Virus genome (UHGV): UHGV-0076424 | Reading direction: 5' to 3' (one strand) | Source of the DNA: a virus | Length of the DNA: 24,387 nucleotides | In this document: positions 8,238 to 24,337 of the stretch, in pieces | Numbering within the stretch: the first letter of the stretch is position 1 | Layout of the letters: each line of letters opens with the position of its first letter | Notes under the pieces: generated by a model | Told to the model about the DNA's origin: nothing | Databases searched by the model: none | The model's input: the letters and a program-made list of their open reading frames with translations, nothing else | Translations under genes and position numbers: made by a program

Positions 8238-8304
8238 TGAAACAGGTGAGTTGAGTTCAAACTGTAGTACAATTCTCTCCAGTTTGAACAGGAAAGAATA
8301 TGCT

Positions 8305-8637
8305 ATGAACCCTTATATTTATCTTGGTGGTGCAATACTTGCAGAGGTCATTGGTACAACCTTAATGAAGTTTTCAGAAGGTTTTACACGGTTATGGCCA
8401 TCTGTTGGTACAATTATTTGTTATTGTGCATCATTCTGGTTATTAGCTCAGACGCTGGCTTATATTCCTACAGGGATTGCTTATGCTATCTGGTCAGGAG
8501 TCGGTATTGTCCTGATTAGTTTACTGTCATGGGGATTTTTCGGCCAACGGCTGGACCTGCCAGCCATTATAGGCATGATGTTGATTTGTGCCGGTGTGTT
8601 GGTTATTAATTTATTGTCACGAAGCACACCACATTAA
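8305..8637 (+). CDS. emrE: EmrE small multidrug resistance efflux transporter
   Basis: 110 aa from MNPYIYLGGAILAEVIGTTLMKFSEGFTRLWPSVG..., matching E. coli EmrE; four hydrophobic helices. Confidence 0.95.
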   Translation: MNPYIYLGGAILAEVIGTTLMKFSEGFTRLWPSVGTIICYCASFWLLAQTLAYIPTGIAYAIWSGVGIVLISLLSWGFFGQRLDLPAIIGMMLICAGVLVINLLSRSTPH

Positions 8638-8665
8638 AATAATTTGTTTCTAAACGACTAAAATA

Positions 8666-8700
8666 TGGAGGCTCTTATATTTATATGAGCCTCGTTTTAT
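8666..8700 (+). terminator. Intrinsic terminator after emrE
   Basis: Stem GGAGGCTC/GAGCCTC with a 12-nt AT loop, followed by GTTTTATGCTTTTTG. Confidence 0.55.
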
Positions 8701-8891
8701 GCTTTTTGTTAATGTCTTTATTTTTTATGTATTCTTTTGTGCTTTCAAGATTATGGCGTAAGAAAATTGCAATACGATTATTGTTGTATATTCAAGATAA
8801 TGTGACCTTAATTGTCTTTTTAAATAAAAATTAAACAAAAATTATATCCCACCACTAAGGTTTATAAAAGCATACGTTAGCAGGTGTCACC

Positions 8892-10418
8892 ATGAAAAAA
8901 GCCATAGCATATATGCGATTTTCATCACCAGGTCAGATGTCTGGTGACTCATTAAACCGACAGAGAAGACTTATTGCTGAATGGTTAAAGGTAAATAGTG
9001 ATTATTATCTTGATACCATAACATATGAAGATTTAGGATTAAGTGCATTCAAAGGAAAGCATGCACAATCAGGAGCTTTTTCGGAATTTTTAGATGCTAT
9101 AGAGCATGGTTATATATTGCCAGGAACTACATTGTTAGTTGAAAGTCTGGACAGACTTTCAAGAGAAAAAGTCGGTGAAGCGATTGAACGTCTGAAATTG
9201 ATTTTGAATCACGGTATTGATGTTATAACTCTTTGCGACAATACAGTCTATAATATTGACTCTTTGAATGAGCCATATTCATTAATAAAAGCCATACTTA
9301 TAGCACAAAGGGCAAATGAAGAAAGCGAGATAAAGTCAAGTCGGGTTAAATTATCATGGAAGAAAAAACGGCAGGATGCAATGGAATCAGGTACGATTAT
9401 GACGGCGTCTTGTCCGAGATGGCTCTCCTTAGATGACAAAAGAACGGCTTTTGTTCCAGACCCCGACAGGGTGAAAACTATTGAGCTAATTTTTAAACTC
9501 AGGATGGAAAGGCGCTCATTGAATGCAATAGCCAAGTATTTAAATGATCATGCTGTAAAGAATTTCTCAGGAAAAGAAAGTGCATGGGGACCTTCTGTAA
9601 TTGAAAAATTATTAGCGAATAAAGCTCTGATAGGTATATGCGTACCTTCATATCGTGCAAGAGGGAAAGGGATAAGTGAAATCGCTGGCTATTATCCCAG
9701 AGTTATATCAGATGATTTGTTTTACGCTGTACAGGAAATTCGGTTGGCACCTTTTGGTATTAGCAATAGTAGCAAGAATCCTATGCTAATAAATCTACTT
9801 CGAACAGTTATGAAGTGTGAGGCTTGTGGTAATACCATGATTGTTCATGCGGTATCTGGAAGTTTGCATGGCTATTATGTTTGTCCGATGAGAAGATTAC
9901 ATCGATGTGACAGGCCATCAATAAAAAGAGATTTGGTTGATTATAATATCATTAATGAATTGCTTTTTAATTGTAGCAAAATTCAACCAGTTGAAAACAA
10001 GAAAGATGCTAATGAAACTTTAGAGTTAAAAATTATTGAGCTTCAGATGAAAATTAATAATTTAATCGTTGCATTGTCTGTCGCGCCTGAAGTTACCGCT
10101 ATAGCAGAGAAAATAAGACTATTAGATAAGGAATTACGAAGGGCTTCGGTATCATTGAAAACTTTGAAGAGTAAAGGTGTAAATTCATTCAGTGATTTTT
10201 ATGCTATTGACTTAACCAGTAAAAATGGACGAGAGTTATGCCGTACACTTGCCTATAAAACATTCGAAAAAATCATAATTAATACGGATAATAAAACCTG
10301 TGATATCTATTTTATGAATGGCATTGTTTTTAAACACTATCCTTTAATGAAAGTAATATCCGCCCAGCAGGCGATAAGTGCTCTCAAATATATGGTTGAT
10401 GGTGAGATTTATTTCTAA
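8892..10418 (+). CDS. ybcK: Large serine recombinase (resolvase/invertase N-domain, recombinase domain, Cys-rich region)
   Basis: 508 aa; N-terminal YMRFSSPGQ matches the serine-recombinase catalytic motif (Y-x-R-x-S-x-x-x-Q). Cys cluster CEACGN...CPMRRLHRC suggests a zinc ribbon. Gene order matches the DLP12 emrE-ybcK-ybcL-ybcM block. Low GC. Confidence 0.85.
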   Translation: MKKAIAYMRFSSPGQMSGDSLNRQRRLIAEWLKVNSDYYLDTITYEDLGLSAFKGKHAQSGAFSEFLDAIEHGYILPGTTLLVESLDRLSREKVGEAIERLKLILNHGIDVITLCDNTVYNIDSLNEPYSLIKAILIAQRANEESEIKSSRVKLSWKKKRQDAMESGTIMTASCPRWLSLDDKRTAFVPDPDRVKTIELIFKLRMERRSLNAIAKYLNDHAVKNFSGKESAWGPSVIEKLLANKALIGICVPSYRARGKGISEIAGYYPRVISDDLFYAVQEIRLAPFGISNSSKNPMLINLLRTVMKCEACGNTMIVHAVSGSLHGYYVCPMRRLHRCDRPSIKRDLVDYNIINELLFNCSKIQPVENKKDANETLELKIIELQMKINNLIVALSVAPEVTAIAEKIRLLDKELRRASVSLKTLKSKGVNSFSDFYAIDLTSKNGRELCRTLAYKTFEKIIINTDNKTCDIYFMNGIVFKHYPLMKVISAQQAISALKYMVDGEIYF

Positions 10419-10882
10419 ATAATGATCTCGGATTTTAAGTTATGCTATGGTGATAAAGTGCAAGACAGAATTAATTATCTTTGACGAAACTTAATGGGTA
10501 ATTACTTTGTTTGCTCCCACAAGCGAGTTTTGTACGGCTGTATTGGGGTAGTAAATGAGCTATACAATCTTAATCATTTGTTAGGTGAGAACTCTTGGTC
10601 GCAGATTCAAATACTGAAAATACGTGACAAATTATTATGAGCAAAATGGTGTATGTCACGTATTTTGAATGGTAGGTTAAAAAATAACACCGACTTTCGT
10701 AGGTATTACTAATAATAAAGCAGAGTTTTTAGATAGTATCAATGTGCTTTGTGTATATTGTGGCAAATAATTGGGTTGGGGGTACAATTGTGATTGCTTT
10801 TGCATAAACATTGCGCCTTTATGCATAATGAGATAAAGGAATATCAAATAAAATAACGATAGGTCATAACAAAGAGGTTTTT

Positions 10883-11434
10883 ATGAAAACACTTATCGTT
10901 TCAACTGTATTGGCATTCATAACATTTTCTGCGCAGGCTGCAGCATTTCAGGTCACTAGTAATGAAATAAAAACAGGAGAGCAACTTACAACGTCTCATG
11001 TCTTTTCTGGATTTGGGTGTGAAGGTGGTAATACATCGCCCTCATTAACCTGGTCTGGTGTTCCTGAAGGTACCAAAAGCTTTGCCGTAACTGTATATGA
11101 TCCAGATGCACCTACAGGCAGTGGTTGGTGGCATTGGACTGTTGTTAATATTCCAGCAACAATAACATATTTGCCCGTTGATGCAGGGAGACGTGATGGA
11201 ACAAAACTGCCGACTGGTGCTGTTCAAGGCCGAAATGATTTTGGCTATGCTGGGTTTGGTGGCGCATGTCCTCCTAAAGGAGATAAACCACATCATTACC
11301 AGTTTAAAGTATGGGCTCTAAAAACTGAAAAGATTCCTGTAGATTCTAACTCCAGCGGAGCGTTAGTTGGTTATATGCTTAATGCTAATAAAATCGCAAC
11401 CGCTGAGATAACACCAGTTTATGAGATAAAGTAG
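10883..11434 (+). CDS. ybcL: Periplasmic PEBP/RKIP-family protein YbcL
   Basis: 183 aa with a signal peptide (MKTLIVSTVLAFITFSAQAAA) and the PEBP motifs DPDAPTGSGWWHW and HHY; paralogous to YbhB at the window end. Confidence 0.9.
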   Translation: MKTLIVSTVLAFITFSAQAAAFQVTSNEIKTGEQLTTSHVFSGFGCEGGNTSPSLTWSGVPEGTKSFAVTVYDPDAPTGSGWWHWTVVNIPATITYLPVDAGRRDGTKLPTGAVQGRNDFGYAGFGGACPPKGDKPHHYQFKVWALKTEKIPVDSNSSGALVGYMLNANKIATAEITPVYEIK

Positions 11435-11443
11435 GGTGAGAGT

Positions 11444-12241
11444 ATGCTGGCAAGAGGTAAGACTAACTTAAAGATCGAAGAAATACGGATGCATAAACAT
11501 CATGAGATTCATAGGGTTAAGCCTCTTATGCCAGCTTTGTGTCGTATCCGTCAGGGAAAGAAAGTTATCAATTGGGAGACGCATACTTTAACTGTTGATA
11601 ATAATCAAATAATATTATTTCCTTGTGGTTATGAATTTTATATTGAGAATTATCCTGAAGCAGGGCTTTATCTTGCAGAAATGCTTTACTTACCCATTGA
11701 TTTAATTGAGAGTTTCCAAAAACTTTATACGGTAACTGATCAAATACGTAACAAAACAAGTTTCTTTTTACCTCAGAATCCTGAGTTAATATATTGTTGG
11801 GAGCAACTAAAAACATCTGTTTCCCGAGGCTTCTCAACTAAAATTCAGGAGCACTTAGCAATGGGCGTTCTACTTTCGTTAGGAGTGAATCATGTTAATC
11901 ATTTACTTTTATCATATAGTAAACAATCATTGATAAGTCGTTGTTATAACCTGCTGCTATCCGAACCCGGCACAAAATGGACAGCAAACAAGGTTGCTCG
12001 ATATCTCTACATTTCTGTTTCTACATTACATCGCCGTCTAGCAAGCGAGGGGGTAAGTTTCCAAAGTATACTGGACGATGTGAGGTTAAATAATGCGTTG
12101 TCTGCTATACAAACGACGGTAAAACCTATAAGCGAGATTGCCAGAGAAAATGGTTATAAGTGTCCTTCTCGTTTTACTGAAAGATTTCATAATCGTTTTA
12201 ATATAACACCAAGAGAGATAAGAAAAGCTTCCAGAGAGTAA
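11444..12241 (+). CDS. ybcM: AraC/XylS-family transcriptional regulator YbcM
   Basis: 265 aa; C-terminal HTH region typical of AraC family ([26 protein letters not shown]...[14 protein letters not shown]). The true start may be the internal Met at 11489. Confidence 0.85.
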
Positions 12242-14517: not shown

Positions 14518-15600
14518 TTAGAACTGGTAAACCATACCTACAGCAACGATATCATCGGTAGCAACGCCAGATGCTTTCGTGAAATCGCTCTTATCAATCA
14601 GGTTGATTTTGTAGTCAACAAAAGTGGACATATTTTTGTTGAAGTAATAGGTTGCACCTACATCAACATATTCAACCAGGTCCTGATCACCCCAAACACC
14701 CAAGTCTTTTCCTTTAGAATGCAGGTAAGCAACGGATGGACGCAGGCCGAAGTCGAACTGATATTGTGCAACAGCTTCGAAGTTTTGTGCTTTGTTGGCA
14801 ATATGGTTATTACCAAAAACAGTCATGTTCTGGGTTTCAGAATAGGTGGTGGCCAGATAGATGTTGTTCGCATCATATTTCAGACCAGCTGCCCATACTT
14901 CAGCATTTTGACCAGAAGCATTCAGACCGTTGTTACCGTAGATAACCTGATTATTAGTGCGATCAGATTTAGCATAGGTTGCACCTACACCGAATCCTTC
15001 ATACTCATAAGTAGTGGAGAAACCGAAACCATCACCATTAGCTTCAGTTACGTCAGTGCGGTCATTTTTACCCTGATACTGAGCAGCAAAGTTCAGACCA
15101 TCAACCAGACCAAAGAAGTCGTTGTTACGATAAGTTGCAACACCAGTGGTGCGACCAGTCATGAACACATCTGTTTGAGTCCAAGTGTCACCACCGAATT
15201 CTGGCAGGACGTCAGTCCACGCACCGATGTCGTATGCTACACCGTAGTTACGGCCGTAATCGATGGAGCCGTAGTCACCGAATTTCAGGCCAGCGAAGGC
15301 AAGACGGGTTTTATCTTTGGAGGAACCTTGAGATTCAGCGCGGTTGCCTTTGAATTCATATTCCCACTGACCGAAACCAGTCAGTTGATCGTTGATTTGG
15401 GTTTCACCTTTGAAGCCAAGACGGGCATAAGTAGTATCACCATCATCTGCATCATTAGAGGAGAAGTAGTGCTTAGCATTAACTTTCCCGTACAGATCCA
15501 GCTTGTTACTGTCTTTATTATAAATTTCAGCTGCCTGAGCAGACATCGCCATCAGTACTGATGCAGCTACAGCAGAAATTGCCACTGTTAATTTTTTCAT
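14518..15600 (-). CDS. nmpC: Outer-membrane general porin NmpC (OmpC/OmpF/PhoE family), intact
   Basis: 360 aa with signal peptide ([23 protein letters not shown]), porin-like beta-strand pattern and C-terminal Phe (GMVYQF); uninterrupted, unlike the K-12 copy. Confidence 0.9.
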
Positions 15601-19626: not shown

Positions 19627-20172
19627 ATGGAAGTCAACAAAAAGCAGCTGGCTGACATTTTCGGTGCGAGTATCCGTACCATTCAGAACTGGCAGGAACA
19701 GGGAATGCCCGTTCTGCGAGGCGGTGGCAAGGGTAATGAGGTGCTTTATGACTCTGCCGCCGTTATAAAATGGTATGCCGAAAGGGATGCTGAAATTGAG
19801 AACGAAAAGCTGCGCCGGGAGGTTGAAGAACTGCGGCAGGCCAGCGAGGCAGATCTCCAGCCAGGGACTATTGAGTACGAACGCCATCGACTTACGCGTG
19901 CACAGGCCGACGCACAGGAGCTGAAAAATGCCAGAGACTCCGCTGAAGTGGTGGAAACCGCATTCTGTACTTTCGTGCTGTCGCGGATCGCAGGTGAAAT
20001 TGCCAGTATTCTCGACGGGATCCCCCTGTCGGTGCAGCGGCGTTTTCCGGAACTGGAAAACCGACATGTTGATTTCCTGAAACGGGATATCATCAAAGCC
20101 ATGAACAAAGCAGCCGCGCTGGATGAACTGATACCGGGGTTGCTGAGTGAATATATCGAACAGTCAGGTTAA
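19627..20172 (+). CDS. nohD: Terminase small subunit Nu1
   Basis: 181-aa product [54 protein letters not shown]... is essentially identical to lambda Nu1. Confidence 0.95.
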
Positions 20173-22372
20173 CAGGCTGCGGCATTTTGTCCGCGCCGGG
20201 CTTCGCTCACTGTTCAGGCCGGAGCCACAGACCGCCGTTGAATGGGCGGATGCCAATTATTATCTCCCGAAAGAATCCGCATACCAGGAAGGGCGCTGGG
20301 AAACACTGCCCTTTCAGCGGGCCATCATGAATGCGATGGGCAGTGACTACGTCCGCGAGGTGAATGTGGTGAAGTCTGCCCGTGTTGGTTATTCCAAAAT
20401 GCTGCTGGGTGTTTATGCCTACTTCATAGAGCATAAGCAGCGCAACACCCTTATCTGGTTGCCGACGGATGGTGATGCCGAGAACTTTATGAAAACCCAC
20501 GTTGAGCCGACCATCCGCGATATTCCTTCGCTGCTTGCGCTGGCCCCGTGGTATGGCAAAAAGCACCGGGATAACACGCTCACCATGAAGCGTTTCACCA
20601 ATGGGCGTGGCTTCTGGTGCCTGGGCGGTAAAGCGGCAAAAAACTACCGTGAAAAGTCGGTGGATGTGGCGGGTTATGATGAACTTGCTGCCTTTGATGA
20701 GGATATTGAACAGGAAGGCTCTCCGACGTTCCTTGGCGACAAACGTATTGAAGGCTCGGTCTGGCCAAAGTCCATCCGTGGCTCCACGCCCAAAGTGAGA
20801 GGCACCTGCCAGATTGAGCGTGCAGCCAGTGAATCCCCGCATTTTATGCGTTTTCATGTTGCCTGCCCGCACTGCGGGGAGGAGCAGTACCTTAAATTTG
20901 GCGATAAAGAGACGCCGTTTGGCCTCAAATGGACGCCGGATGATCCCTCCAGCGTGTTTTATCTCTGCGAACATAATGCCTGCGTCATCCGCCAGCAGGA
21001 GCTGGACTTCACTGATGCCCGTTATATCTGCGAAAAGACCGGGATCTGGACCCGTGATGGCATTCTCTGGTTTTCGTCATCCGGTGAAGAGATTGAGCCG
21101 CCGGACAGCGTGACCTTTCACATCTGGACGGCGTACAGCCCGTTCACCACCTGGGTGCAGATTGTCAAAGACTGGATGAAAACGAAAGGGGATACGGGAA
21201 AACGTAAAACCTTCGTAAACACCACGCTCGGTGAGACGTGGGAGGCGAAAATTGGCGAACGTCCGGATGCTGAAGTGATGGCAGAGCGGAAAGAGCATTA
21301 TTCAGCGCCCGTTGCCGCACCGGCAGCGCCGTCGCGGATTGAGCTGACGCCGGGCTATTTTCAGATAACCGCCACGCCGCATCTTGCGGTTTATGATCCG
21401 ACGGTACAGTTTGAGTTCTGGTTCTCGGAAAAGCGGATTGCGGATATCAGGCAGGTTGAAACCACAGCACGCTATCTTGGCACGGCGCTGTACTGGATAG
21501 CCGCCAGTATCAATATCAAACCGGGCCATGATTATTACTTTTATATCCGCAGTGTGAACACCGTTGGCAAATCGGCATTCGTGGAGGCTGTTGGTCAGCC
21601 GAGTGATGATGCATCCGGTTATCTGGATTTTTTCAAAGGCGAGATAGGGAAAACCCATCTGGCTCAGGAGCTGTGGACGCAGATTGATAACGGTCAGCTT
21701 GCGCCTGACCTGGCTGAAATCAGGACGTCCATTACGGATGTCAGCAATGAAATCACGCAGACCGTCAATAAGAAACTGGAAAACCAGAGTGCGGCAATTC
21801 AGCAGATACAGAAGGTTCAGGTTGATACAAATAATAACCTGAACAGCATGTGGGCTGTGAAGCTGCAGCAGATGCAGGACGGACGCCTTTATATCGCGGG
21901 TATTGGTGCCGGTATTGAGAACACCCCTGACGGCATGCAGAGTCAGGTGCTGCTGGCGGCGGACAGGATTGCGATGGTTAATCCTGCGAATGGCAACACA
22001 AAACCGATGTTTGTTGGTCAGGGCGATCAGATATTCATGAACGACGTGTTCCTGAAACGCCTGACGGCCCCCACCATTACCAGCGGTGGCAGTCCTCCGG
22101 TATCGCCGGAAGGGGAGTTTCAGAAGTGGAACGGCACAGCCTGGGTGAAAGATGCAGAAGCAGAAAAACTGTTCCGGATCCGGGAGGCGGAAGAAACAAA
22201 AAACAGCCTGATGCAGGTAGCCAGTGAGCATATTTCGCCACTTCAGGATGCGGTAGATCTGGAGATTGCAACGGAGGAAGAAATATCGTTGCTGACAGCC
22301 TGGAAGAAGTATCGGGTATTGCTGAACCGTGTTGATATTCTTGAGCCAGTTTGGCCTGTGCAACCACAATAA
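20147..22372 (+). pseudogene. Chimeric deletion-scar ORF: terminase large subunit A N-terminus fused in frame to tail-tip J and tail-fibre-assembly (Tfa) C-terminal fragments
   Basis: Residues 1 to ~390 (to KEHYSAPV) match lambda gpA. The product then continues as [34 protein letters not shown]...[20 protein letters not shown] (lambda J C-terminal region) and ends [17 protein letters not shown]...LLNRVD (Tfa C-terminus). Confidence 0.8.
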
Positions 22373-22478
22373 CGGAAGGATTTACTCCTTTTATTATTGC
22401 TGACTTAAAGCCAGTTTCAGGCGTATCGTGGCTGAGACAGATAACCACCCGCTATGCGAGTGGTTATGATTTTAACCT

Positions 22479-23198
22479 TTAACCTTTAACCTTTAATTTG
22501 AGATTTTTTACTTTGCCATAAAGCGTATCTTTTAAAGAAAAAGATGGAACCCAGTTAAAACCAGTGCGCCAGGGGCGTGGACTACCGTGAAAACACACAA
22601 CTGAAACACTGTCAGGTACTTTCCCAGTTGCTGATTTTGATGCCAGGTCTGGATTGTATCCAATCATTGATTTTGTTGCTATATCGCATTTATAACTTTT
22701 AATTGCATCTGGAATAATGTCCTGCCATAAGTCTGGCTTAGTAACACTACCGATAAAACCTTGATCACCCCATTTATCTTCAGTTTTGCATTCTTGCATT
22801 ATTTGTTCAGGATTGGCAGTAAATTCCTCCCATATTTTTGTCTTTGCAGAAACGGGAATCATCATAATTGAGGAGTTAACACGGTCATGATGATTAAACT
22901 CCCTGAGCATGGTAAAATTTTTAGCTTTTGTAAAAATATCCAATTTTCCAGTAATGACAACATCTATGTCAAAATATAAAATGTCATGATTCCCGATTAC
23001 TGGATGGTTTGGGTTAAATAACTCCATTTTTGACCACCAACCAGGCCAATCAAATAACAAAGGTGCAGTATTCACACCATCAATACTTCCAGCATCAGTC
23101 AAGCAGATTGAGGGCATTGAACCAAATTGTTTATGAAGCCATTGTGCATGTTTCGGCGTAAAATCCTTGCCGCAGCGTAGTACAGAAACGATCAACAT
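22479..23198 (-). CDS. Hypothetical 239-aa b-region protein (possible DxD-motif nucleotide-sugar transferase or phosphoesterase-like)
   Basis: Intact low-GC ORF between the tail-gene scar and attR; contains GNHD and YFDIDVV (DxD-like) motifs. No family confidently recognised. Confidence 0.5.
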   Translation of the reverse strand: MLIVSVLRCGKDFTPKHAQWLHKQFGSMPSICLTDAGSIDGVNTAPLLFDWPGWWSKMELFNPNHPVIGNHDILYFDIDVVITGKLDIFTKAKNFTMLREFNHHDRVNSSIMMIPVSAKTKIWEEFTANPEQIMQECKTEDKWGDQGFIGSVTKPDLWQDIIPDAIKSYKCDIATKSMIGYNPDLASKSATGKVPDSVSVVCFHGSPRPWRTGFNWVPSFSLKDTLYGKVKNLKLKVKG

Positions 23199-23471
23199 AG
23201 AAAATCTTTCCTAAACTTTCAGATCTAATTTATACATTAAATAGTTTGAGGTTATGAATACTATCTGAAGTATACAAGTTATTATGTGAAACAACCAGAA
23301 GAGTGACTACAATCCTAAGAAAACAAATTGTGGTAGATGTTGGCGCGAGAATACACAGGCGGAACGATTACCTGTGATGTTGGTGGGTCGAAGTTGTATG
23401 AAAAATTTCCTGCTGGGGATAAATAAAGTCGCGGTATGTCATGTGCGGGAAGGAATAATCATTGGTTTTAT

Positions 23472-23506
23472 GCCGCAGCACGTTGTATGCAATAACGTGC
23501 TGCGGC
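23472..23506. promoter_or_regulatory. Perfect 13-bp inverted repeat, candidate sib-like retroregulator
   Basis: GCCGCAGCACGTT, 9-nt loop, AACGTGCTGCGGC; about 250 bp on the b-region side of the att core, where lambda carries sib. No U-tract follows on either strand. Confidence 0.4.
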
Positions 23507-23612
23507 TGGCTGGTGAACTTCCGATAGTGCGAGTATTGAATGATTTCCAGACGTTACCGATTTTACGACAAAAAATTAGCGCAAGAAGACAAAAATCACC
23601 TTGCGCTAATGC

Positions 23613-23775
23613 TCTGTTACAGGTCACTAATACCATCTAAGTAGTTGATTCATAGTGACTGGATATGTTGTGTTTTGTCGCGTTTTGCAGTCTATTTTTT
23701 AGACTGAATCAATTATAAGTCGTTGATATTAATTGTTTTTACCGTTTCACATTCAACTTTTTTATACTAACTTGA
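23613..23775 (+). other. attR (phage P arm, core, bacterial B' arm)
   Basis: TCTGTTACAGGTCACTAATACCATCTAAGTAGTTGATTCATAGTGACTG matches the start of the lambda attP P arm with arm-type Int sites. Core CTTTTTTATACTAA (23757-23770) is 14/15 to lambda, followed by CTTGAGCGAAACG, the lambda attB B' arm. Confidence 0.8.
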
Positions 23776-23860: not shown

Positions 23861-24337
23861 TTAACTAAACATCGCAGTAATCGAGGCGCTTGCCAGAGAG
23901 TGGAAATGAACGTTAAACCCGACCATCGCGCCGCTGGCACCTTCATCGACATCAATACGTTCTATATCCAGCGCGTGAACGGTAAAAATGTAGCGATGAG
24001 TTTCGCCTTTCGGCGGTGCTGCGCCATCGTACCCGGTTTTACCAAAGTCGGTACGCGTCTGCAAAACGCCGTCTGGCATTGCTACCAGACCAGAGCCAAA
24101 CCCTTGCGGTAATACGCGGGTATCAGCGGGTAAGTTAACAACTACCCAGTGCCACCAGCCGGAGCCGGTTGGCGCATCCGGGTCGTAGCAGGTGACAACA
24201 AAACTTTTCGTTCCCGCAGGAACATCATCCCACGCCAGATGCGGTGAAATATTATCGCCATCGTAACCCATGCCGTTAAAGACATGACGATGCGGCAATT
24301 TATCGCCATCGCGCAGATCGTTACTGATGAGTTTCAT
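23861..24337 (-). CDS. ybhB: Host PEBP-family protein YbhB
   Basis: 158-aa product MKLISNDLRDGDKLPHRHVFNGMGYDGDNISPHLAWDDVPAGTKSF... matches E. coli YbhB, the gene flanking att-lambda on the bio side. Confidence 0.9.
   Translation of the reverse strand: MKLISNDLRDGDKLPHRHVFNGMGYDGDNISPHLAWDDVPAGTKSFVVTCYDPDAPTGSGWWHWVVVNLPADTRVLPQGFGSGLVAMPDGVLQTRTDFGKTGYDGAAPPKGETHRYIFTVHALDIERIDVDEGASGAMVGFNVHFHSLASASITAMFS

Follow-up and report, generated by a model that had tools for sequence, protein, structure and literature searches.

What keeps a small, AT-rich gene intact in a prophage that can no longer build a virion? We addressed this question in the virus genome UHGV-0076424, a stretch of 24,387 nucleotides referred to here as the window, in which an open reading frame (ORF) of 239 amino acids (22479..23198, minus strand, ATG start) lies beside the right attachment site, attR, of a defective lambdoid prophage. 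A first-pass annotation, made from the DNA letters alone, had marked this low-GC ORF as a candidate lysogenic-conversion enzyme, either a nucleotide-sugar transferase or a metallophosphoesterase. The ORF is present exactly as called, and its product belongs to PHROG 1962, the family of PmgQ of phage P1 and HdmD of phage P7. The protein is very probably a compact, soluble GT8-like glycosyltransferase of the GT-A fold with intact catalytic motifs, judged by sequence comparison and a structural model. Its most likely function, in which we place about even confidence, would be the addition of a sugar to the core of lipopolysaccharide (LPS), altering the cell surface and phage receptors.

Sequence profile, invariant catalytic motifs and predicted fold agree on the enzyme class and bear out the suggestion of a DxD nucleotide-sugar transferase. 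The protein matches the PHROG 1962 'glycosyltransferase' profile with E=4e-76, residues 1-225 aligning to profile positions 1-226 of 230. Residue conservation was read from an alignment of 36 diverse homologues that also served as a search profile: D77, D79, G144, D145, Q146, F203, H204, G205, P207 and P209 are invariant, and R208 and W210 are kept in at least 90% of the sequences, which gives the catalytic motifs D77-x-D79, G144-D145-Q146 and F203-H204-G205-x-P207-R208-P209-W210. The same profile matches solved GT8 structures, namely Gat1 (the Skp1 alpha-galactosyltransferase of Dictyostelium and Toxoplasma; E=6e-5) and glycogenin (E=4e-4), and the family's DxD, GDQG and FHGxPRPW align with the glycogenin catalytic motifs D-A-D, GGDQGLL and HFLGQTKPW. 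Structure prediction, which the first-pass annotation had called for, yields an AlphaFold model of high confidence (predicted local distance difference test 96.1, predicted template-modelling score 0.92) with a single Rossmann-like GT-A fold nearest to GT8 structures, the best structural matches being Gat1, Streptococcus GlyE and glycogenin. Two sequence elements had been singled out earlier, GNHD and YFDIDVV. Both are there, at residues 69-72 and 75-81, and the DxD of YFDIDVV is conserved among homologues, whereas GNHD occupies a variable loop that reads GNRD, GNQD, GDKD, GSED and others. The metallophosphoesterase candidate (calcineurin-like, PF00149) is excluded because GNHD is not conserved, no Pfam family matches at E<=10 and the predicted fold is GT-A.

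The protein is best named GT8-like, a sister family beyond the reach of the Pfam GT8 model, because PF01501 misses it while the family profile alone reaches GT8 sequences in the Protein Data Bank. The silence of Pfam, together with a non-significant BLASTP comparison of the window protein with E. coli WaaJ, weighs against our reading; NCBIfam and PADLOC scans of the protein also return nothing. No transmembrane segment is predicted (maximum Kyte-Doolittle 19-residue mean 0.98). The C terminus carries a basic tail (residues ~219-239, net charge +6) that is particular to the enterobacterial stand-alone clade, where its charge ranges from +5 to +9. One may speculate that this tail helps association with an anionic membrane; as an amphipathic membrane helix it is not convincing (helical hydrophobic moment <=0.34), a further point on the opposing side.

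The setting of the gene is that of prophage cargo. The lambda att common core, CTTTTTTATACTAA, occurs once in the window (23757..23770, plus strand; 0 expected by chance), and is flanked by the host gene ybhB (PEBP family; 23861..24337, minus strand), after which bioA and then bioBFCD follow in related genomes. The att core and the ybhB flank therefore identify a lambdoid prophage integrated at attλ and put the glycosyltransferase gene in its b region, as the first-pass annotation had it, 558 bp inward of attR. The tail-gene scar described there corresponds to a 741-amino-acid in-frame fusion ORF (20147..22372, plus strand) made of five pieces with at least three junctions: the terminase gpA ATPase, the start of the gpA nuclease, an Ig-like domain of J, a tail-tip fibre domain and the C terminus of the tail fibre assembly protein (Tfa). 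RefSeq calls the equivalent terminase-to-tfa scar in strain SW070917 pseudogenes, and with this deletion the prophage is defective and has lost virion production. The glycosyltransferase gene had been described as the only intact gene between scar and attR; it is intact, but an 88-amino-acid ORF (23374..23640, plus strand), hypothetical in RefSeq relatives, lies between it and attR, and PHROG and Pfam scans of the window ORFs give this small ORF no family match. The glycosyltransferase gene has a GC content of 0.375 (0.30 at third codon positions); the window as a whole has 0.453, and the neighbouring terminase/tail fusion ORF and ybhB have 0.531 and 0.524, respectively.

The attλ copy is rare, with 4 carriers among 5,426 complete E. 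coli genomes, and these carriers represent three states of prophage decay. The window and SW070917 have the terminase-to-tfa fusion, with an additional IS1 beside the glycosyltransferase gene in SW070917; AJ1 has a frameshifted J and a truncated tail fibre; and GDSC2227PM keeps a remnant of ~5.5 kb in which the tfa neighbour contains an internal stop. The glycosyltransferase ORF is intact in all of them, with 0-2 nucleotide differences. Over a 1.6-kb region the remnants diverge by 2-3% (30-42 differences), nearly all of it in the P-arm side of attR (23199..23756), which holds 30 of 30 AJ1 differences and 36 of 42 GDSC2227PM differences and diverges by 5-6% between otherwise identical remnants; the glycosyltransferase gene and the tfa remnant are identical or 2 nucleotides apart. 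The pattern looks like a sharp mosaic boundary at the start of the glycosyltransferase gene, and because the differences cluster in the P arm, near-identity among the remnants is no proof of selection. The argument for selection is carried by a more diverged copy, 85% identical, that lies in a P2-like prophage of strain AH19B041. Set against that copy, the gene shows 79 synonymous and 25 non-synonymous differences and a ratio of non-synonymous to synonymous rates (dN/dS) of 0.05, thus purifying selection on a live gene.

Closely related genes travel through several phage types and also sit alone in chromosomes. Counting members at least 50% identical to the window protein as the same clade, we find the gene in lambdoid b regions; in E. 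albertii, where it follows the tail fibre and tfa genes and closes myovirus prophages that carry P2-type tail genes; in Citrobacter prophages, with tfa on one side and a LexA-like repressor on the other; and after gpU in the P2-like phage Chuche and in AH19B041. By base composition and variable presence at such hot spots, the gene is AT-rich single-gene cargo, or 'moron'. Other clade members have housekeeping neighbours: in Vitreoscilla stercoraria the gene is isolated between RNase R and tRNA-Met/rpoD/dnaG, and no phage genes are nearby in V. massiliensis (beside an FMN dehydrogenase), Shimwellia (between a heavy-metal P-type ATPase and a GntR regulator) or Yokenella (beside a sulphur transporter). 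Persistence without structural genes and these housekeeping-gene locations argue that the enzyme acts on the cell and not on the virion. Salmonella enterica strain s1 (CP191473.1; loci L098 and L099 of the survey below) carries two stand-alone-clade copies, 73% and 75% identical to the query, one beside flhDC without nearby phage genes and the other beside tail fibre and tfa genes.

Among phages, a tblastn search of 50,697 records matched 32, including Chlobot, Chuche, P1/P7-like phages, phiNP and jumbo phages. None of the 32 is lambda itself by organism and host tallies, in line with the earlier statement that the ORF could not be assigned to lambda Ea47, Ea31 or Ea59. The complete lambdoid phage Chlobot encodes an identical protein in its b region, with one synonymous nucleotide difference, labelled 'glycosyltransferase' in GenBank. 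P1 PmgQ and P7 HdmD share 36% identity over 92% of the length (E=8e-32), the Citrobacter phage phiNP protein is 41% identical, and several jumbo and marine phages are among the remoter relatives. The family is large, with 5,176 clusters at 50% identity reaching E<=1e-3 and 1,208 reaching E<=1e-30, and at least 579 IMG/VR contigs carry it.

The acceptor is suggested by where bacterial homologues reside. We called and clustered ORFs in 177 loci (given L numbers here) and labelled family members with hidden Markov models, using Q for the glycosyltransferase and O for the PmgO/PmgP family; the Q gene was recovered in 69 of the 86 loci of the initial pass and, after forced recovery, in 177 of 177. 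Ten of 80 species-level bacterial loci place Q within an LPS-core (waa) cluster or beside the WaaL ligase; they come from Klebsiella sp., Raoultella, Morganella, Rosenbergiella, Erwinia and Pectobacterium. The Klebsiella sp. and Raoultella clusters run tdh, kbl, hldD, GT9, GT9, O-like, WaaL, Q, an unassigned ORF, GT9, GT4, GT4, GT2, WaaA, GT2, and Q adjoins WaaL in Morganella, Rosenbergiella and Erwinia. Pectobacterium sp. B1J-3 has GT9, GT9, WaaL, GT9, GT4, a Kdo-kinase family gene, a sulfatase-type transferase, a Pfam GT8 gene, a WaaZ-like gene, Q and GT25, with a WaaA-type Kdo transferase ~9 kb further on, past five transport and metabolic genes. The Q protein of this Pectobacterium cluster (P0033) is the closest bacterial homologue of the window protein (49% identity over the full length, E=9e-82), and when 125 non-redundant members are placed in a neighbour-joining tree, drawn without bootstrap values, it branches as the outgroup nearest to the query clade. 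With its nearest bacterial relatives in LPS-core clusters, re-decoration of the host surface is thus the most likely role. The window gene itself lies in a prophage, outside any waa cluster.

The frequent partner of Q points in the same direction of LPS chemistry. Outside the query clade Q usually occurs with O, which is present in 40 of the 69 initial-pass loci with a called Q, and eight loci encode Q-O fusions of 402-484 amino acids, in the order Q then O in seven (L003, L047, L049, L053, L059, L068, L073) and O then Q in L060; structural matches in BFVD show such fusions too. Fusion in both orders indicates tight functional coupling of the two activities. The O family gives weak Pfam MptE-like (PF01973) matches, matches to the NCBIfam WaaZ model TIGR04437 under its equivalog cut-off (E=7e-19 and 3e-22) and a precomputed match to PF27901, WaaZ_KDO_III, and a profile seeded on P1 PmgO matches residues 13-267 of E. 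coli K-12 WaaZ, almost the entire protein, with 34 bits. These profile matches make the O family, including P1 PmgO and PmgP, a remote relative of WaaZ, which transfers KdoIII in the LPS inner core of E. coli and Salmonella. P1 itself uses the LPS core as receptor. PmgO and PmgP are paralogues, annotated with 'putative morphogenetic function' and, in RefSeq, as 'alpha-2,3-sialyltransferase' (L004, 3144-4330; K-12 WaaZ at L178, 7346-8197). A PmgO/PmgP partner was sought in the window and in the whole Chlobot genome, and none was found at E<=10.

Other neighbours recur around Q in the wider family, among them FkbM, Methyltransf_24 and other S-adenosylmethionine-dependent methyltransferases. One enterobacterial prophage group (L013-L019, L056, L099) has a hexapeptide-repeat acyltransferase and a 151-amino-acid protein, the latter with no family match, between tfa and the glycosyltransferase gene; the acyltransferase suggests O-acetylation of a glycan together with its glycosylation. 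In Rhizobium spp. (L131, L136, L137, L143, L144, L163) a family member stands beside a hybrid histidine kinase, a BetR/response regulator and a protein of ~1,200-1,370 amino acids, a conserved context that is neither phage nor waa.

How might such an enzyme act in a lysogen? We infer the acceptor, the donor sugar, the stereochemistry, expression from the prophage and the phenotype, and on that basis propose a soluble cytoplasmic enzyme, dependent on Mn2+ and DxD and presumably retaining (alpha-linking). It would transfer one sugar from a uridine diphosphate (UDP)-sugar, probably in alpha linkage, onto the LPS core or a closely related lipid-linked envelope glycan, which it would meet on the cytoplasmic side of the inner membrane. 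Export of this altered LPS would change the cell surface, so that phage receptors in the LPS core are masked or altered, leading to superinfection exclusion or a change of host range; O-antigen ligation or antigenicity might be altered too. This proposal fits what is known of core biosynthesis and phage adsorption, in that the alpha-hexose outer core is the product of GT8 enzymes (WaaO, WaaJ/R, WaaT, LgtC) and outer-core sugars are a common recognition target of tail fibres of the P1 S, Mu S and P2 H type, which come with Tfa chaperones. It also agrees with a study in which overexpression of WaaZ reportedly modifies the inner core and truncates the outer core (Frirdich et al. 2003, cited in PMC4690856). 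Homologues in waa clusters, stand-alone chromosomal copies and survival in decayed prophages lend indirect support to a role as surface-modifying cargo, as the first-pass annotation had supposed; the orientation of the gene in the intact phage would fit an early lytic gene transcribed from pL equally well.

On expression, some of the evidence pulls the other way. A strong Shine-Dalgarno sequence, AGGAAAG, read from the DNA, lies 7 nucleotides 5' of the ATG (23206..23212, minus strand), and a sigma-70-like promoter candidate, TAGTCA and CATAAT with a 17-nucleotide spacer and 9 of 12 matches, lies further 5' (23281..23309, minus strand). The following observations count against expression in the lysogen or against the LPS acceptor. 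Promoter-like sites near the gene number 9, against 5.4 +/- 3.0 expected in DNA this rich in AT, which is chance level, and an alignment of upstream regions from 9 contexts shares the ribosome-binding site alone, with no co-travelling promoter. In intact Chlobot the gene shares the pL strand with N...exo-bet-gam...xis-int and comes directly after int, across attP, and the P1 operon pmgN-pmgO-pmgP-ppp-pmgQ has a C1 operator as well as a late promoter upstream; the pL-strand position after int and C1 repression both argue for lytic-phase over lysogenic expression. Identity to the waa-cluster proteins is 36-49%, a distance at which acceptor specificity can change. A literature search on pmgQ, hdmD, pmgO and Chlobot returned an essentiality table and a transcriptome mention and no functional study, and P1 pmgQ was non-essential in a CRISPR interference screen (PMC10695390). 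One potential source of transcription in the lysogen is read-through from bioA-ybhB across attR, which is possible because the gene shares its strand with ybhB and runs inward from attR. A GC-rich hairpin between the convergent tfa remnant and the glycosyltransferase gene (22443..22465) has no T-run on the glycosyltransferase side and would act as an intrinsic terminator for the plus-strand late operon only.

Some contexts of distant members hint instead at protein modification. Working in the cytoplasm ahead of assembly or export, a protein O-glycosyltransferase would modify either a structural protein of the phage, such as the tail fibre or capsid, or a surface protein of the host, for instance an adhesin; we judge this unlikely. 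In many environmental prophages the major capsid gene and the head-tail connector genes are separated by the Q module, in which Q is accompanied by its WaaZ/MptE-like partner and by FkbM or Methyltransf_24 methyltransferases. This setting, with its sugar-type methyltransferases, hints at a protein acceptor, although the gap is also a common site of moron insertion. The gene usually abuts tail fibre and tfa genes in enterobacterial phages, an adjacency that is not universal since in Chuche it follows gpU. Pseudescherichia (L107, L108, L113, L120, L122) provides a second hint, as Q and two O genes flank a 1,166-amino-acid inverse autotransporter (IAT_beta and seven Big_1 repeats) and other Big_1/RCC1 proteins, in what may be an adhesin glycosylation locus. 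These contexts weigh against an LPS acceptor. A protein target is further suggested by the substrates of Gat1, GlyE and glycogenin, all of them proteins or protein-linked glycans, and MptE-like/DUF115 domains include the Maf flagellin glycosyltransferases. Against protein modification, the query clade is kept in remnants without capsid or tail genes and as single chromosomal genes, and a P1 virion proteome paper does not name PmgO, PmgP or PmgQ, its 'glycos-' text matches being 'transglycosylase' only (PMC9024508).

An enzyme of early lytic host takeover or anti-defence, made from pL after excision and favouring phage growth by glycosylating a cytoplasmic target of the host (a protein, a small molecule or a component of a defence system), appears rather improbable to us. 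The Chlobot position directly after int across attP, like that of the lambda ea genes, the control of the P1 operon described above and the lack of a convincing promoter of the gene's own all speak for it; PADLOC, however, finds no match, the gene is kept in remnants incapable of lytic growth, and its stand-alone chromosomal copies and waa-cluster homologues argue for a cell-autonomous role in the envelope. Timing alone cannot separate it from LPS modification, because remodelling of LPS during the lytic cycle, with masking of receptors on debris, fits both. That the product is a phosphoesterase after all, or an inactive and decaying remnant, is very improbable: GNHD and residence in a decayed prophage could be cited in favour, but the GNHD and fold evidence given above stands against the former, and against the latter the GT8 motifs are invariant, dN/dS is 0.05 and the ORF is identical or 1-2 nucleotides off in a viable phage and three remnants. 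Hypermodification of phage DNA against restriction is scarcely credible. Phage GT-A enzymes that glycosylate 5-hydroxymethylcytosine do exist, and these are JGT/TarP-like, with R...DDD...EDY/F motifs, beside C5-methyltransferase/TET or ThyS genes (bioRxiv 10.1101/2023.12.21.572611). The window protein has a GT8-like fold, a different GT-A class; a scan of the 30 window ORFs against PHROGs or Pfam reveals no thymidylate-synthase-like or TET-type gene; Chlobot is annotated with a single small 'DNA methyltransferase', its type unspecified, and with no TET-type oxygenase; and chromosomal and waa-cluster homologues would make no sense for a DNA-modifying enzyme.

Several known systems invite comparison with the window gene. 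P1 PmgQ and P7 HdmD share the family and the DxD, GDQ and FHGxPxPW motifs, but PmgQ is encoded in an operon with PmgO and PmgP (WaaZ/MptE-like) and the Ppp phosphatase under C1 and late-promoter control, whereas the window gene stands alone in a lambdoid b region and belongs to a separate enterobacterial clade with a basic C-terminal tail. The GT8 enzymes of LPS and lipooligosaccharide synthesis (Neisseria LgtC, E. coli WaaJ/WaaO including WaaR/WaaI/WaaT types, the Klebsiella WbbM GT8 domain) measure ~310-340 amino acids; the window protein, at 239, lacks their C-terminal acceptor and membrane-association domain PF08437, and the template-modelling score is ~0.55. Protein-directed GT8 enzymes (glycogenin, Gat1, GlyE) are 12-15% identical to the window protein and differ from it in context, which for the window gene is bacterial and phage. 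There is no sign of self-glucosylation, in an alignment that is unreliable at the residue level around the acceptor Tyr of glycogenin. Phage seroconversion (P22/SfV-type GtrABC, O-acetylases, D3 Wzy-beta), in which att-adjacent cargo alters LPS and blocks superinfection, is the functional analogy that we propose. Gtr systems combine a GT2 bactoprenol glucosyltransferase, a flippase and a periplasmic membrane glycosyltransferase acting on O antigen; the window gene, in contrast, encodes a single soluble enzyme with no GT2 Pfam match and no GtrA-, GtrB- or GtrC-like neighbours, and its suggested target is the core. A further comparison is virion glycosylation in mycobacteriophages, a concept mentioned in PMC11256854. 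The glycosyltransferases of the Che8/Corndog type are cytoplasmic, sometimes accompanied by methyltransferases, and encoded near structural genes, like the capsid-proximal distant members of our family; the window clade differs in persisting without virion genes, and no homology between the two is established.

A broader generalisation, which we put forward tentatively and consider possible at best, is that many unrelated phages, temperate and virulent, among them P1/P7, lambdoid, P2-like and numerous environmental siphovirus-type prophages, carry a mobile kit for LPS-core remodelling that hides core-dependent receptors. Such a kit would consist of a GT8-like hexosyltransferase of the PmgQ family, joined in most cases by a WaaZ-like Kdo-type transferase of the PmgO/PmgP family, at times as a fusion of the two, and often by sugar methyltransferases. 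Active during lysogeny or infection, it would remodel the conserved LPS core of the host, as the core-level counterpart of O-antigen seroconversion. P1 PmgO, PmgP and PmgQ would then be receptor-masking enzymes, and the window gene a minimal, one-enzyme version.

PHROG 1962, with PmgQ and HdmD, was already known as a phage glycosyltransferase family; new here are the GT8-like assignment with its catalytic residues, the rejection of a phosphoesterase, the recognition of P1 PmgO and PmgP as WaaZ-like and the finding that the Q and O families have bacterial relatives in LPS-core clusters. From this last point follows an acceptor hypothesis that is concrete and can be tested. The first-pass annotation was thus largely right on the enzyme class and plausible on the role. 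If the LPS-core proposal is true, one small prophage gene could alter susceptibility to the many coliphages that bind the LPS core, namely P1, Mu, T3/T7, T4 (on B strains), phiX174-like and Felix O1-like phages, and may shift O-antigen ligation and sensitivity to serum or antimicrobial peptides, with a bearing on host-range prediction for phage therapy and on LPS core typing. It would also provide a first function for a large family (the 5,176 clusters above, with no Pfam model) and for three P1 pmg genes labelled 'putative morphogenetic function' since the P1 genome was annotated. Should the proposal be wrong, the gene is still a well-supported glycosyltransferase, and glycosylation of virion or host proteins by phages of Gram-negative bacteria would likewise merit interest. 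Taken alone, the gene is ordinary cargo; a phage module for LPS-core remodelling, if confirmed, would be a finding of some worth.

Elsewhere the window carries exo, bet and gam; a cI-like repressor gene, cII, O and P; ninB, rusA and Q; nu1; and genes for an endolysin, Rz, a Rha-like regulator and a DUF1398 protein. A low-GC (0.32-0.43) cargo block at 8251-12241, between the replication gene P and ninB, resembles DLP12 and encodes an SMR/EmrE-type transporter (8251-8637), a large serine recombinase of 508 amino acids (8892-10418), a PEBP-family protein (10883-11434) and an AraC-type regulator (11444-12241); we take this block to be the emrE-ybcK-ybcL-ybcM set of DLP12, here in an attλ prophage. 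Between the antiterminator gene Q and the lysis genes, on the opposite strand, lies a general porin gene (14518-15600, minus strand; 360 amino acids; Pfam Porin_1, E=3e-152). It is an nmpC/lc-like phage porin and constitutes a second surface-altering cargo in this prophage.

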